A stretch of DNA of 64,000 nucleotides from Kondoa subrosea. Taxonomy: Eukaryota. The notes beneath the pieces were generated by a model. That model was not told the origin of the DNA. It did no database searches and saw only the letters and a list, made by a program, of their open reading frames with translations. The translations under genes were made by a program, and so were the position numbers. Within the stretch, counting starts at the first letter, position 1, and every line of letters begins with the position of its first letter. Shown here one piece after another: positions 36,307-57,606 of this stretch. The stretch covers positions 620,001-684,000 of the forward strand of contig BCIN01000003.1 of assembly GCA_039545335.1 (NCBI GenBank), written 5' to 3'.

Positions 36307-37741
36307 ATGCCTGGTAAGTTATAATGTGCGCAGAGCAAAAGAATCTGCGCATTGACATTTCGACTTGGTCAGCTTTCGGGCGGTCGGACAGTCATAGGAG
36401 TTTATCAGCAGAGGAGAGAGGGATAGTAGGAGGACATGCTCAACCTATCAAGCGAAGCTATATCTCAGATGTGGGTTCAGCAAGAAGGAAAGGTCAAGCG
36501 CTGGAAGCTCAGGTACTTTGAATTGGACAGGACGATGATTGGAGAGTAGTACTCATCACTAAAGGACTGCAACTCTTCTTCCTTCTTATCTCTCTCTTCA
36601 TCGCTATTGGTATAGCGTCGGTATGCTTGCGGCTCAGACTCATTCTGACGACTTCTGATACTTTAGCTGACAGTTTCAAGGGAAGAACTTTGGCGTTTCT
36701 GGACTCTCAGCGCTCAATCTTCTTATTCTCCTACAATCACTCATCATCACGGGCGCGATATTACTCATAACGTTCTTGAACGACCGGTATGGCAAGCTAA
36801 AGGCGATGGCTGGAGCTACAAGGCAGATGTGAGTTGATCTTCAAATCAGTACGAATACTTTGCTGAGAATATGCTTCTCAGCCGCTTCGGCTTTGTAATC
36901 TCAATCGCTCAAGTTACTTTACTGCTCATTATCGCTTTTGTCAACGCAATATCGGCGAATACAAAGGGTTGCAGTACGTTCAGAGATACTCACTCTGAGA
37001 GAATTAGCGTAACATTCCCGCAGAGGATCCAGAGAAGGACAAGCATGCAAGCAACGGAGATTAGTAAGCAGCATACATGGTCCCAGTTTGCTCAGACTTA
37101 TGGATGATGATGAGCAGCAAAAATCAATTAGGAGGATTCTGTACAACGAAAAAAGCTCTGAGCGCTTTCCTCTGGTTCTCAACCTGTACGTTCACTGCAT
37201 TTTCTGCCAAAGCCGCTAAATGTCAAGTATAGTCGCTTGGGCTGCATCTCTGGTTCTCGCTTTCCTCAAATGGCGATCATTCAGAACAGGAGGAGGCTCA
37301 CGTATTCCTCCTTTCCAACCGCCCCACGAGCAAGGTGCTTCAGAGTATGAGAACGGCGCCTTCAATGCAAACGAAGACGACGATGATCCACATTCTGGTT
37401 ATGCTGCGCCTACAATGTATCAGAACGATAATGCCAGACCCTCGGGAACTTTCTATTCTGGAGAAAGACCGTTTGAAGATCCTTTGCCTTCTGGCTATAG
37501 TACGTTCTCTTATATATTGATGCTCTAGTCCTTACGAAATAATGATTTTTAAATAGATGTAGGTCAGCAGCGTCAGAATAACCCTTTTCAAGATCCTTCG
37601 CCAGGATATGACGATCCATGTTAGCTATTCTCTGTTGTTTTCTTCATTCGCATACTGATTCGACTCGACCCAGATGATCGAATAAGGGCTGAGATCAATG
37701 CAAGGGATGAGAGGGACGAAGCGCAGTATGCGAGAAGGTGA
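36307..37741 (+). CDS. Four-TM membrane protein (MARVEL-like) with Pro/Tyr/DPF-rich cytosolic tail
   Basis: Four hydrophobic segments across exons, a Cys pair in a loop and NPFQDP/PFEDP motifs in the tail. The family call is tentative. Confidence 0.6.
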
Positions 37742-38310: not shown

Positions 38311-41300
38311 ATGAACAGCGCTCCTCCTGTTCCTTTGGGCAAGAGACCGGCTCTTCCTGGTCGTTCTTCTACTCTCAGTTCTATCTCTACTACGTCCTTA
38401 GCTCAAAGTCCTCAAGCTTCTCCTGCCTCTCCTGCTCCTCAAGCTAAACATATCCCTCAAGAGGTAAGCTAGAATTCATCGTTCCCTTTGTACAGTCAGC
38501 TCACGCTCTTGTTCAATGCTAGAGCAAGATTAAGCCTCCTACTGAAGCTCAATGGCAAGCTACAATGAAGTCACTTCCGAACCCGAATCGTTTGGCCGAA
38601 TTGGAAGCCTCTGTTCGAGCAGCAGATAGAGAAGCTCTGGCTGCGAAATCTGGTCTAAATAAGACTGATATCAAACCAGGTGATGCGAAGCAGGATGGGA
38701 AACCTTCAGACGGGAAACCTGGCGAGAAAACCAATCTGGAAGAGAACAAAGGCAATCAAGGCAACATAGTCAGTCTGCTCGTTCTCTCGATGCAAACTTC
38801 AAGGCACTGACCGATCCTAGAAGGTCGACGAGAAGAAGACAGCAAATTCGCCAGCTCTGAAAGCCGGAGATCCGCCTAGGAATGATGGACCAAGGCCAAC
38901 TGACCCTGCTAGAGCTCCAGAACCGCCCAAAACACCTCTCGCTCCCAATCCACCTGCTCCTCCAGCTCCTTCGGGCTTTGGTCCAAGTTCGTAAGCTGGA
39001 ATATGTCTTCATTGTAGACTGATTAGCTTGACAGGCAATCCGCTGAACAGTACTAACCCAATGTATAACAATATGATGAAGTGAGCACACTCAGTAGTAT
39101 GATCTCTTGCGCTGATCTCTTGATCTTCACAGTCGAGGTTCGTTCACCTGGAATGTCCTTATGCTTCTTCTCATACTCAGTCTTCCTCAGGAATGTACGG
39201 TGGAATGGGTATGCCTGGAATGATGGGAGGTCAGGTCTGCTTCTTTATCTCCCACATATCGACTGAAGCCAGCGAAAGGAATGGGAGATATGGGAAGAAT
39301 ACCAATGCCCATGCAACAGCCAATGCCGCCTCCAATGATGCGTATGTTGCTATATATTACATTTGGAGCAGAACTAATTAGCTATAAAGCTCAAATGCCA
39401 ATGCCTGGTTCGTGTTCAGCGCAGAATCATGATTGCAATCGCTGACATGATCAGTAGCGATGCCGATGCAGATGCGTGAGCTTTCTGATATGTCTGTGTG
39501 CACAGCTACTGATTTGCTTCTCGTCGTCAGCACAGATGCGTGAGCTGTGCAAATGCGACTTGCAGATAGATACTCATGTATCATCATTCTCGCAGCTCAG
39601 ATGCCGCCTCCGATGCCGCCTGTAAGCCACTGCTCATCCTATACTGCTAACTTTGATGTCGATCATCTGTTCAAAGCCACCTCCGTGGGTACTCTTTTGT
39701 CGTTTTACATTCGTCGCTGATATTTTGCAGTCCTCCAATGCCTCCGTGCGTATCTCAATTGCTTGAGCCTACTATACTGACCTATCTAGTTTCTGTAGAC
39801 CACCGGTATGTCTGTCGCATCGCTTAATTTGCGCAATTTGATTATGTTCATTACTAGGCTATTCCTGCACCACCTCGTAAGTAGCAATGTTTGTTCTGAT
39901 ATGTGTGCTCATCTTCTTAGCCCCTGCTCCGGCTCCACCGTGCGCTCTCGATTTTGCATTGACAGATACAAGCTGACTCGTCGGTAGACCAATGCAAGCT
40001 CCTCCGCCTATTATCCAGGCGCCTGTGCCTCGTACGCTATTCTGATTGTTCTAGTACCTAGCTGATACTCAAAAGAAACAGCATCTGTACCCAAAGGACC
40101 TGACCCGATGGTTGCTATGATGACACAGTTCAAACAACAACTGGAAGAGGCTACAAAGAAAGCTGAGCAGGCCAGATCTGCCGCGAGAGCCGTTCCACGA
40201 CCTTCGGAAGATTCAGTAGGTTTAATCGATATTAAAGGACAAATGGCAAAGCTGAGCAAATACAGTCCGACGAGTCTTCAGAGGATGAACCCGTTCGCCG
40301 ACCTAGACATCGCTCTAGGCGGGCTTCTTCTTCCCATGCGGACGAAGCAGAAGACCAGCCGAGCTCAAGAGATTCTCCCAGGCCCGTAAAGGTCAGTTGT
40401 CAGCAATCTCATCTGTCCTCGTATCGATTCTTTCTTTCAGCAAAGCGTCTGGTCTCCCGACCCTGAATTGCGCCGTCTCTTCGTAATTCTGGCTCGTCGA
40501 TCATCAGGTACTTATGCTGAAACTGCTCTTTACATAGGATGAAGACAAAGAAGGACCAAAAAGACGTCCATTCCCTATTTCGCGAGCTTCGTCATTTCAC
40601 CAAGATGAAGACAGAACTAGACACGACTTCGACGATTTCCCGCAAAGAAAACACTCTCACGATGTCTCTAGCACTACGACGCCGGAACCACTACCACCTG
40701 AGAGTCTGCCAAATCAGTGGAGACCTGGTACGCCGCCGATTTCGAGGAAAAGCAGCTGGAACTCAGAAGCTCTAGGCGAGCATCAACATTCGCCTCACCA
40801 CAGATCTAACGGTCTGCCTCATCCGAACTTGAGACGTAGATCGGATAGCAGCGGAATGGAAGGTCTGAATTCGAGGCCTAGAAGTAAGCTTGTTCTTGGT
40901 CTTGCGCAAATTGAGCCTTGATGCCCTTCAAAGCACCTGATCCGATTCATCCCGAAGATCCAGCGGTGCACTTTGGCAGAGCTACAACGCCGGTCTCGAA
41001 GCAGTTCCACGCCAGTCTTGATGAAACACCTGACCTCAGTAGTTGGCAACCTTTTCCTACTTTCTCGCAGCATGAATCAACTGAGAAGAGTAAGAGAAAC
41101 ATTGATCTTCTGGAGGAGATCTACAGCTCAGCGGCTGCTAAGTGAGGCCAAGTCTAGGATATATACTGCGCTGGCTGACCGTGGTTTACAGCAACATTGA
41201 TAGCTCGATCTGGAATCACCCTGATTTTGCCGAAGCGTGTCAAGAGAAGACGAACTACCAGACAGATCCGTTCGAACAAGGTGATTCTGGTCAGCAGACA

Positions 41301-42051
41301 CCTCGCAGTCCTGGAGTGGTCCAGTCACACGCTTTCCTTGGCTTTTCTTCGACTCATGACAAGACATTTGCCTACGAAGAAAAGACACCTTCAGGAATAT
41401 ACTCAACATCAGTGCATAATGCTATGCCATATTACCAGCAGACTCCGTCATTCGCTGAACCATCTTTCGATTTCCAAGCGACACAAACTCCTCAGCAGGT
41501 ACCTCCGCAAGAACGGTATCGTACCAACGAGATGCAACCCGAGCAACAGCTAGCACCCTGGAATCAGCATGATTTGGATCAACCTGAATCGATTTTCGAT
41601 CAACCTGCAAGACAGCTCGCCCAATCATGGGTGGAAGATCTGCCGCAACGTCAATACAATAGTAGACCTCGCCTAAGAGCTTATTATTCTCAGTCCGCCG
41701 AAGATTTTGTTGATACTTCTTCCCGCTTCTCCCGCTCAGATGCAAACGGCGAAGAAACGTACGAGGAGACTTTTGTCAGTTTCGGTCGTCCTGCTCATAA
41801 CCAGATCTACGGTCATACTCAAGATCTACTGGAAGAAGACGATATGGATTCGCCTTTACAGCGCTTTCATCCTCCTCTCAATGATTTCGGTGATGGTTCA
41901 GGGCAACAGCTCAATGGTGTGCCGTCTTCCAGTACAGGTGATCTCCCCAGTAGGTGAATAACACTCTTGCCAATACAAAACTCAGCAGCTGACGAGAACT
42001 TTCAGCTTCGACAGTGATTTCAGTTGCGATATAGATTTCAGATTGCCTTGA
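38311..42051 (+). CDS. Large disordered Pro/Met-rich protein assembled from a microexon array
   Basis: Manual splicing keeps one reading frame from MNSAPPVPLGKR through 13 consecutive introns in 39081-40075 and later exons to ...IDFRLP*. No catalytic domain recognised. Confidence 0.7.
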
Positions 42052-55243: not shown

Positions 55244-57606
55244 TTAAGCTGCCAACTGAGGTCCAGCATTGCGAACAGCAGGTGTGCAATCGGACTGTGA
55301 GAACGAAAACCTTCAGCATTGAAAATATGCGAAGAGTGTTTCTGTCAACTCACGGAGTATTTTTCGAAGGCCTCGTTGAACATCTTTCCGAGCTTGTTGC
55401 GCTCAGCGTCGAAAGCACTGGAATCTGACCATGCTTTTGCAGGGTTGAGCAATTTGCTATCAATACCTTCAACAGCTGAGGGAATAGATAGGTTGAAAAC
55501 ACCGAACTGTGAAATGGCAGCAATTGTTTCAGCTCAATATCGAGCAGCGAACGCGAGCCAACCCACGTTTTCGAACTTGCACTTGGCTAAGCTTCCATCG
55601 TGAATAGCATCCACAATAGCACGCGTAGCTTTGAGAGGGCAACGCTTGCCAACACCGAACTTTCCTCCAGTCCAGCCAGTGTTGAGCAGCCAGCACTTGG
55701 ATCCAGCCTTGGTCATACGTTCGGCCAACATGGTAGCGTATCGCGATGGGTGCAAGACAATGAAAGGTTGACCGAAGCAGGTCGAGAAAGTCGGTGATGG
55801 TTCTGTTACACCATCTTCAGTTCCAGGAGTTTTCGAGCTGCCTAGAACATAAGCTGCTACATTAAGGGCAATGTGTTGTATAGCTTACGTGTAACCCAAG
55901 ATGAACCAGCTATTACAGAGTATCAGCTTCAAGTTTTCACTCGCAGTATGTGATAGCTTACTATTGCGCCTGCTCAGGAGTGAGAAGAGAGACAGGTGGC
56001 AGGACACCGTAAGCGTCGCAAGTAAGGTAGATGACATTGCTTGGTTGAGCGTCTGCGATGCAAGGGATTTTGGCGTTTCTGTGCGTCACAAGCAGATCAG
56101 CAGCCGCAGTAAACGGCCCAAGACTGTCTGACGCACGGAATGAATTCGATAGGGTAGGCGCATCTGGTGTTTTCGGTAATTCCATCATCAGCGTAATCTG
56201 GTTCTCTGGTATCTCTGTCGAAAGAGACATTCTCTAAAATAGAACCGAAGCGAATAGCATTATAGATTTCGGGTTCCTTCTCTTTCGCTAGACCAATGCA
56301 CTTGGCGTAGCAACCACCCTCGATGTTGAAAACGCCATTGTCAGCCCAAACATGTTCGTCATCGCCAATAAGAGCTCGGTGAGGGTCAGCGGAAAGAGTA
56401 GTCTTGCCAGTTCCTGAAAGACCGAAGAAGAGAGAAACATCGCCGTTTGGTCCTTCATTCGCTGACGAGTGAAGAGAAAGTTGACCGAATTTGACTGGTT
56501 GGAGATAGTGCATGACACTGAAGATACCCTTCTTCATTTCCCCAGCGTACTGTAACATCAGGTCAATACAACTCCAAATGAAGATATTATTGCCTCTTTG
56601 CCTACCTCTGTACCGAGGATGACCATCTCGTTTCTCTTGAAGTTAAGTTCGACTGAAGTAGTTGAAGTCATGCCAGCGGTGAAACGATTGGCAGGGAATT
56701 GTCCAGCGTTGTCTGTGAAATGGGAAGGGCTCGTAAGTTCGATGCAGCTGGGAGTTGACAAGTCAACTGACAGATAGTAAAGTCTGGAGTGCCGAATTCT
56801 GCTAACTCCTTCTTTGTTGGTCGAATAAGCACTACATACAGGTCAGCAACAGTCTGCAGCGTGAGCAGGCGAACTGACTGTTGTTCATGAAGAGAGCATG
56901 GTAAGCACGAGCGCAAATCACTCGAACTTTGATGCGGTACTTGGGGTGCCATCCAGCGAATCCATCGAAGACGTATACGTTATCACGAGTGTTCAAGTAA
57001 TCGATAGCTCGTTCTCTGTTAATTTCGAAAGTGTGTTCATCAAGCTTGATGTTGACTGATCCCCACCAGATGTCGTCTTTTGAAGTCTCTTCGTATACGA
57101 TACGTTTGTCTTTTGGTGATCGACCAGTCTTCTTACCAGAGCTGAAACAGAGTAAGCATGCTAAAATTATAAATGGGAACACAGACTGACTAGTTGATCA
57201 AAGCTCCTGAAGCGGAGATAACAGCTCCTTCGTACTTGACAGCATCTTCGTACAATTGAGCAACAGGTGCGTTTCGCTTCAAGTGCTGTCAAACCGCATA
57301 GGTGTCAGAATGCGGGACTCCGGACAAAAGGAGAAGGCGGTGTTACAATCTTTTCCATGTCGAAACCAGCTTCTGAGAACATGTCCAGGTCTTTGCCAAC
57401 AAGAGAGTAGTGAGCACTGTATATCAAGCTTAGCGGATGGTAGCATATTGGCTTCGTCAGAATTTACCTTGGACCGCTGCGTTTTGGGCATGCTTTTAGC
57501 ACTGCATAAGCGAGCATCAAGGCGAAGCTCACCCTTCCTGCTGGTCAATAGGTGCTTTCATACCAGGTGTGCCGGGACGAGCGGGAGTACCATGACTGAG
57601 GACCAT
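55244..57606 (-). CDS. PCK1: Phosphoenolpyruvate carboxykinase (ATP)
   Basis: [66 protein letters not shown]. The 5' end includes a 9-nt microexon. Confidence 0.98.

Follow-up and report, generated by a model that had tools for sequence, protein, structure and literature searches.

Runs of very short exons are known from several kinds of gene. In the micro-exon genes (MEGs) of schistosomes most of the coding sequence consists of symmetric microexons that are variably spliced, and the fibrillar collagen genes, which are of the same type as the PEVK region of titin, contain short repeated exons. The exons of the schistosome genes have been described as 3-81 bp long, with introns of up to 5 kb, and their products as secreted proteins (PMC10526429). 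In the PEVK region of titin about 113 exons of tens to about 100 nucleotides (nt) are separated by long introns and recognized by exon definition, their regulated skipping (Rbm20) has been reported to set the length of the spring, and exon duplication is given as the accepted origin (PMC6469411; PMC3575840). Adjacent microexons validated by reverse transcription-PCR (RT-PCR) have been reported in rice, where one of 5 nt and one of 12 nt lie side by side (PMC8831610), and in human RPS24, with three in a row (PMC12207440). Among the fungi, about 9% of the gene models in the long-read annotation of Coprinopsis cinerea have been reported to contain internal exons no longer than 15 nt, with exons of 1-3 nt occurring as well (PMC12230235), and 'functional', regulated microexons of filamentous fungi were called undescribed in one article as late as 2024 (PMC11121469). 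Here an array of tiny exons is described at positions 39081-40081 of a 64,000-nt stretch of Kondoa subrosea DNA (contig BCIN01000003.1). The whole stretch is referred to as the window, position 1 is its first letter, and all features of the array are on the + strand.

The array is probably the middle of one gene (38311-42051, + strand), in which constitutively spliced short introns would separate tiny exons that encode a tract rich in methionine and proline (Met/Pro tract). A preliminary description, made from the sequence, had proposed 13 introns in this region together with the exons between and after them, and cutting the sequence by script at those coordinates has reproduced them exactly (Table 1). 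All 13 introns start with GT and end with AG and are 44-56 nt long; the base at +5 is G in every one of them, and the base at +6 is C or T in 12. When the exons are joined the frame stays open and the peptide is rich in Met, Pro and Gly, as had been claimed. The array is also invisible to open reading frame (ORF) finders. No ordinary ORF spans it, the longest over the stretch on either strand having 85 codons. If the model is right, an intron would occur for about every 22 coding bases, a density some ten times that of the remainder of the gene. The earlier assignment of phases was likewise borne out: six consecutive introns are in phase 1, which gives five 1-1 exons, and one further exon is 2-2.

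The window is eukaryotic in character, with long open frames interrupted every few hundred bases, a guanine-plus-cytosine content of about 45-48%, and introns of about 50 nt that start with GTNNGY and carry CTRAY branch sites. A strict intron pattern (GTNNGY start, CTRAY branch, C/T/A followed by AG at the end, 42-70 nt) was found 80 times on the + strand of the window and 45 times on the minus strand, and 29.9 times on average in 30 Markov-1 random sequences, that is, about 0.47 per kb. The nine occurrences between 39001 and 40000 are the highest count among all 1-kb bins of both strands, the next highest being six. An intron model composed of position matrices with branch-distance and length terms was trained on 52 introns located outside the gene and selected by pattern plus open frame, which are 43-73 nt long and score 17.1-29.6 bits. 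With the exception of intron 39230-39278, the 13 introns of the array have scores within the training range (17.6-26.1 bits), and their lengths also fall inside that of the training set.

A parse of the region that maximises the splice-signal score and ignores coding information revealed 11 of the 13 introns exactly, the other two differing at one end only (donor 39235, acceptor 39998). The parse reached a total score of 311.9, whereas 200 shuffled sequences of the region averaged 107.9 and did not exceed 208.1. Non-overlapping introns of at least 20 bits number 12 between 39035 and 40081 (1,047 nt), against 0.40 expected in random sequence. Exons of 30 nt or less between two introns of that strength were found nine times in the array, once in the rest of the window (both strands) and 0.4 times per random 64 kb. 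When the 5-nt exon was absorbed into a single 110-nt intron (39081-39190), the score of this intron was only 1.9 bits. Applied to the minus strand of this region, the parse gave only weak sites of 18 bits or less, about as many as in the shuffles.

Coding content was in agreement with the splice signals. The frame imposed by the chain of exons is the richest in Met plus Pro (M+P) in the 12 exons that contain a full codon (12 of 12), despite six changes of offset, the 5-nt exon being uninformative. Since nine exons have both borders set by signals alone, this tracking of the frame is not merely a product of the sites chosen in the preliminary description. By intron scores, parse and frame tracking, the proposed microexon array encoding a low-complexity Met/Pro tract therefore looks real.

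The array is the interior of one larger protein-coding gene, and not a small gene beginning at the sequence MMN. The MM at 39073 had been taken as the start; this is not maintained, because the exon that carries it continues the frame from upstream (Table 1). The model has its ATG at 38311 and its stop at 42049-42051, the array corresponds to exons 5-17, and the weakest junctions outside it are 38464, 40483 and 40884. The array exons sum to 290 of the 2,562 coding nt (about 11%). Because 290 is not a multiple of 3, a single intron 39081-40081 cannot keep the frame, and in the direct join, worked out by hand, a stop is reached seven codons on. A single intron of this kind would moreover exceed even the longest training intron about 14-fold in length. 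Retention of each of the 14 introns was simulated, and a premature stop was obtained in 13 of them, only the 48-nt intron 39342-39389 being read through.

Table 1. Coordinates of the gene model, of the introns and exons of the array and of the two exons next to it. Scores in bits are those of the intron model; M+P, methionine plus proline residues in the chain frame and in the other two frames.
Coordinates	Strand	Feature	Phase	Score or basis
38311..42051	+	Gene model, 24 exons and 23 introns (44-59 nt), 854 codons plus stop		Manual model, 2565 nt, no internal stop
39035..39080	+	Exon just upstream of array, 46 nt, carries MM		Continues frame of exon 38821-38986 via intron 38987-39034 (23.3 bits); other two frames with stops
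39081..39132	+	Intron 1, 52 nt	2	25.3 bits; chosen by signal-only parse
39133..39137	+	Exon, 5 nt		Between two parse-picked introns; skipping gives frameshift
39138..39190	+	Intron 2, 53 nt	1	17.6 bits; weak branch site (2.9 bits); chosen by parse
39191..39229	+	Exon, 39 nt	1-1	M+P 6 vs 0 and 0
39230..39278	+	Intron 3, 49 nt, donor GTCAGG, acceptor AAG, weakest in array	1	11.3 bits; training minimum 17.1
39279..39341	+	Exon, 63 nt	1-1	M+P 13 vs 1 and 0
39342..39389	+	Intron 4, 48 nt	1	21.7 bits; sole array intron whose retention keeps the frame without stop
39390..39407	+	Exon, 18 nt	1-1	Both flanking introns at least 20 bits; frame check
39408..39457	+	Intron 5, 50 nt, CAG/TAG tandem acceptor (39454 and 39457)	1	25.1 bits
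39458..39475	+	Exon, 18 nt; the junction with the following intron (exon end plus intron start) recurs 64 nt downstream	1-1	Repeat, frame and signal checks
39476..39530	+	Intron 6, 55 nt	1	25.0 bits; with intron 7 among the two most similar intron pairs (score 9)
39531..39539	+	Exon, 9 nt	1-1	Frame and signal checks
39540..39595	+	Intron 7, 56 nt	1	20.6 bits
39596..39621	+	Exon, 26 nt, holds a 12-nt unit 2.2 times	1 to 0	Repeat, frame and signal checks
39622..39676	+	Intron 8, 55 nt, AAG acceptor	0	20.4 bits
39677..39684	+	Exon, 8 nt		Frame and signal checks
39685..39730	+	Intron 9, 46 nt	2	26.1 bits
39731..39745	+	Exon, 15 nt	2-2	Frame and signal checks
39746..39798	+	Intron 10, 53 nt	2	24.8 bits
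39799..39805	+	Exon, 7 nt		Frame and signal checks
39806..39857	+	Intron 11, 52 nt	0	20.8 bits
39858..39876	+	Exon, 19 nt		Frame and signal checks
39877..39920	+	Intron 12, 44 nt	1	23.3 bits
39921..39939	+	Exon, 19 nt		Frame and signal checks
39940..39987	+	Intron 13, 48 nt	2	22.0 bits
39988..40031	+	Exon, 44 nt, last of Met/Pro tract		M+P 7 vs 1 and 0
40032..40081	+	Intron 14, 50 nt	1	24.2 bits at acceptor 40081
40082..40215	+	Exon downstream of array, 134 nt		Sole open frame is the chain-delivered one; other two with 2 stops each

A second in-frame acceptor, located 3-9 nt upstream and scoring 0.8-3.1 bits lower, is present in four of the 14 introns. These acceptors are 39272 in intron 3 (9.9 against 11.3 bits), 39454 in intron 5 (24.3 against 25.1 bits, 3 nt upstream), 39789 in intron 10 (22.5 against 24.8 bits), the use of which would convert the 7-nt exon into one of 16 nt, and 40075 in intron 14 (21.1 against 24.2 bits). 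The last of them had been given as the end of the array; it is the lower-scoring of two in-frame acceptors, 40075 and 40081, of a 14th intron that follows the 44-nt exon. The four upstream acceptors could be due to chance or could be the source of small length variants. Upstream of the gene, on the same strand, a 102-codon frame at 37220-37528 shows a hydrophobic N-terminus, an acidic tail and no Pfam match, and it is probably a separate small membrane-protein gene.

The sole other microexon predicted in the window, an exon of 21 nt (55909-55889, minus strand), belongs to a PEPCK gene and was used as positive control. Seven to eight residues encoded by this exon align to a conserved motif of the homologue P0005, and the frame breaks when the exon is left out; this homology support indicates that exons of such a small size are spliced in this genome. 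The relatives found for the conserved PEPCK exon are basidiomycete only; the best named one, from Acaromyces, is 84% identical, and the next ones are Pucciniomycotina mixed with Ustilaginomycotina. The host is accordingly taken to be a basidiomycete, and from the 84% identity of this nearest named relative its lineage appears to be thinly sampled. The two introns flanking the 21-nt exon (region 55838-55961, minus strand) start with the same nine bases, akin to the twin donor contexts of the array, and the homology-supported acceptor downstream of the exon is a CAG located 4 nt past a TAG. The top PEPCK match, P0001 (368 bits, source 'merc', 385 amino acids), showed 67% identity over the best local alignment, with lower-scoring matches at 92%, and it may come from a close relative, as a gene model in which introns were read through.

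Several observations weigh against the array as modelled. In the PEPCK gene the parse was right for about seven of nine introns, as judged by eye against the homology blocks, with one intron missed and one misplaced, and it set the acceptor downstream of the 21-nt exon 4 nt too early in comparison with the homology-supported site. Because of these errors in the control, the choice among close AGs is unreliable, and the array junctions, above all the acceptors with a second AG close by, may lie a few bases away from the positions given, which may apply to two to five junctions of the model. The intron model is partly circular, in that G at +5 and a CTRAY branch are themselves requirements of the training pattern, and the scores of the training introns are not leave-one-out. 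At a lenient threshold of 12 bits the region contains 14 introns and the shuffles 6.7 pseudo-introns, so that at this threshold the total score is discriminating and the count is not. Intron 39230-39278, with 11.3 bits, lies under every training intron, and at two junctions the signal-only parse favours, with nearly equal scores, a site that breaks the frame. These are donor 39235 of intron 3 (14.9 bits), which would lead into a stop, and acceptor 39998 of intron 13 (22.1 bits), which would shift the frame. In addition, the gene gave no relative in any search, and the support for the model thus comes from the sequence itself.

A rival reading is that the stretch is non-coding, either as a spacer between two genes, as one long intron or as a decayed gene, with the splice-like signals and Met/Pro segments being relics or chance products. 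The lack of a homologue, the weak intron 3 and the several pseudo-introns in shuffles at the lenient threshold are in line with this possibility, and an ATG at about 40108, located by eye, could start a downstream gene. Such a reading is nevertheless improbable in view of the excess of introns of at least 20 bits over expectation, the tracking of the frame in all informative exons and the uninterrupted frame of 854 codons over 24 exons, which a single long intron would shift; moreover, introns here are 43-73 nt long and one of 1 kb would itself be an outlier. The preliminary description had instead accepted the array and considered it a tuning device, in which the length of the Met/Pro domain is varied by regulated skipping of symmetric microexons. 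Skipping of any one of six exons (39, 63, 18, 18, 9 and 15 nt), of which five are consecutive, introduces no stop, and use of the four alternative in-frame acceptors would make a difference of 3-9 nt in length. However, skipping of any of the other seven of the 13 exons causes a frameshift, with a stop no more than about 50 codons on, the six symmetric exons are close to the chance expectation of 4.3, and a run of equal phases is also left behind by old tandem duplication. Exon skipping has furthermore been reported as 1% of the coding-region splicing events in the basidiomycete Schizophyllum commune, compared with 44% for intron retention (PMC5034255). Tuning by regulated skipping is consequently regarded as unlikely.

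Among the splicing modes of basidiomycetes, intron retention has been described as dominant and as regulated (PMC5034255; PMC5006051), and together with the premature stop that retention produces in 13 of the 14 introns this would fit a splicing-efficiency gate, in which the packed introns make the yield of full-length mRNA depend steeply on the performance of the spliceosome and mis-spliced forms go to nonsense-mediated decay. The idea proceeds purely from the anatomy of the array, any multi-intron gene shares the property to some degree, and we consider the gate quite improbable. A combined possibility, unlikely in our judgement, is that a condensate-prone or ligand-rich domain is controlled through the splicing of the array, with the choice of sites and the efficiency of splicing setting its amount and length. 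This possibility draws on the 13 introns that stop on retention, the 48-nt intron that is read through, the six skippable exons and the four in-frame acceptors; if true, it would be a fungal, intron-definition counterpart of the tuning of titin PEVK. It had also been suggested that the introns are kept because, in the DNA, they interrupt coding repeats that are prone to slippage. In line with this, no coding run in the Met/Pro tract goes on for more than 63 nt without interruption, and only one short tandem repeat is detectable in it. Near the start of the window, two long open frames of 266 and 303 codons, rich in Ser, Pro and Gln, are located on the + strand at 1765-3477. The 303-codon frame (2566-3477), which is intronless as judged by the ORF only, contains an unbroken run of 15 Gln plus Pro runs, and this speaks against a general pressure to break coding repeats. 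No mechanism or precedent for repeat-breaking introns was found in the literature searched, and the suggestion is abandoned here as highly improbable.

Constitutive splicing of the array, as the middle of one gene, would thus proceed by known means. In fungi with introns so short, the splice sites are thought to be paired across the intron (intron definition). The array would consist of fourteen ordinary short spliceosomal introns of 44-56 nt placed head to tail, with exons of 5-63 nt between them, and each intron carries a 5' site, a branch site and a 3' site of its own. Under intron definition the size of the exon would not be limiting, so that exons of 5-9 nt would be tolerated and joined constitutively. 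We infer from these signals that the RNA of the array is made and spliced as modelled.

The origin of the array was approached through its internal repeats. An exact 14-nt repeat is present at 39469 and 39533, with a spacing of 64 nt, and a second repeat, of 12 nt, at 39680 and 39741, with a spacing of 61 nt, both across an exon end and the start of the next intron. The five exon bases ahead of the intron are identical for three phase-1 introns, and a CC-rich context is shared by three phase-2 introns. The duplicated exon-end junctions of the preliminary description are therefore real; the tandem exon-intron duplication deduced from them is weakened by the fact that the introns are scarcely more alike than unrelated ones. 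The best pair of array introns scored 9, compared with 8.5 for the 99th percentile of unrelated introns, and the means were 0.1 and -1.5, respectively, a difference (Mann-Whitney p = 0.002) that length and composition could explain. An old duplication of a few symmetric exon-intron units is plausible from these repeats and phases. A burst of introners or introner-like elements was rejected, with no intron pair clearly above the controls and no repeat family covering the introns. The high intron density would most likely be a historical by-product, due in part to such an old duplication of symmetric exon-intron units.

The Met/Pro tract (exons 39035-40031) comprises 111 residues, with 43 Pro, 25 Met, 9 Gly, 8 Gln and 7 Ala, and contains Pro runs of 7, 4 and 4. 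Met/Pro segments with poly-Pro runs such as this one may resemble proline-rich ligand regions and the Met-rich low-complexity domains of yeast proteins. The role of the tract would most likely be that of a proline-rich ligand or spacer, or else of a low-complexity segment that associates with itself. The whole 854-residue protein, with 16% Pro, 11% Ser and a longest hydrophobic run of 5 residues, appears disordered. Its first 30 residues are rich in Pro, Ser, Gly and Arg, the N-terminus is not hydrophobic by inspection, and a PxxPxR-type motif was seen there by eye. In residues 301-854 (40266-42051, + strand), Phe directly follows Asp in 8 of 28 cases, compared with a mean of 2.3 in shuffles, of which 24 in 20,000 reach 8, and two of the eight Asp-Phe pairs lie within the last 11 residues. 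These pairs may constitute a short acidic-aromatic motif; D-x-F motifs are not enriched in the model protein (2 against 1.9).

A search of Pfam with eight exon or ORF translations from the gene and its upstream neighbour gave no match above the cut-off, and two weak rows (E 0.32 and 0.031) were rejected, both being below the curated scores. The 253-residue C-terminal exon and the 82-residue second exon had no relatives by word-indexed search of longer proteins. The C-terminal exon also gave no hit at E<=0.001 in an exhaustive phmmer search of 1.84 billion representatives, no usable Atlas match and no match in metagenome contigs. When the 115-residue exon was compared with metagenome contigs, a match at locus L001 was obtained and discarded as a chance match of a short Pro-rich word in a long prokaryote-like ATPase frame. 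The lack of relatives for a disordered protein says little, because even the PEPCK of this genome is at most 84% identical to that of any named species.

If transcripts confirm it, the array would be among the densest runs of tiny exons found described. It would be a hard test case for basidiomycete gene predictors, in which a single missed exon of 5-9 nt destroys the gene model, and a compact natural substrate for the study of how the spliceosome removes introns whose neighbouring 5' and 3' sites are 5-9 nt apart. The array is not evidence of a new mechanism, and it has no demonstrated regulatory role.

In comparison with the known systems, the array resembles the schistosome MEGs, as described in PMC10526429, in having a run of very short exons, a disordered product and some symmetric exons. 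The closer likeness put forward in the preliminary description does not stand. The introns of the array gene are 44-56 nt long, only six of the 13 exons are symmetric and seven are asymmetric, the array represents about 11% of the coding sequence, and, unlike the secreted MEG products, the model protein has neither a hydrophobic N-terminus nor a hydrophobic run beyond that given above, a result of inspection and not of a signal-peptide predictor. The PEVK region of titin is, according to the accounts cited (PMC6469411; PMC3575840), likewise a proline-rich, repetitive and disordered segment encoded by many short, dense exons that annotation tools miss; unlike them, the exons of the array are far smaller and mostly asymmetric, and the similarity between units is nearly gone. 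The microexons validated in rice and in human RPS24 are two or three in conserved folded proteins, whereas the array has about a dozen in a low-complexity tract. No fungal run of a dozen microexons encoding a low-complexity tract was found in the limited collection of literature searched; the supplements of PMC12230235 might list comparable genes. The constitutive microexons of basidiomycetes, as reported for Coprinopsis cinerea (PMC12230235) and for P450 genes of Phanerochaete (PMC1184071), share with the array exons of 15 nt or less between GT-AG introns of about 50 nt, the omission of which breaks the frame and which ab initio predictors miss. Unlike these single microexons, the 12 internal exons of the array (5-63 nt, including five no longer than 15 nt) are consecutive within less than 1 kb, and they encode a low-complexity tract and not a folded enzyme. 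The array is an extreme example of the tiny exons already familiar in intron-rich basidiomycetes.

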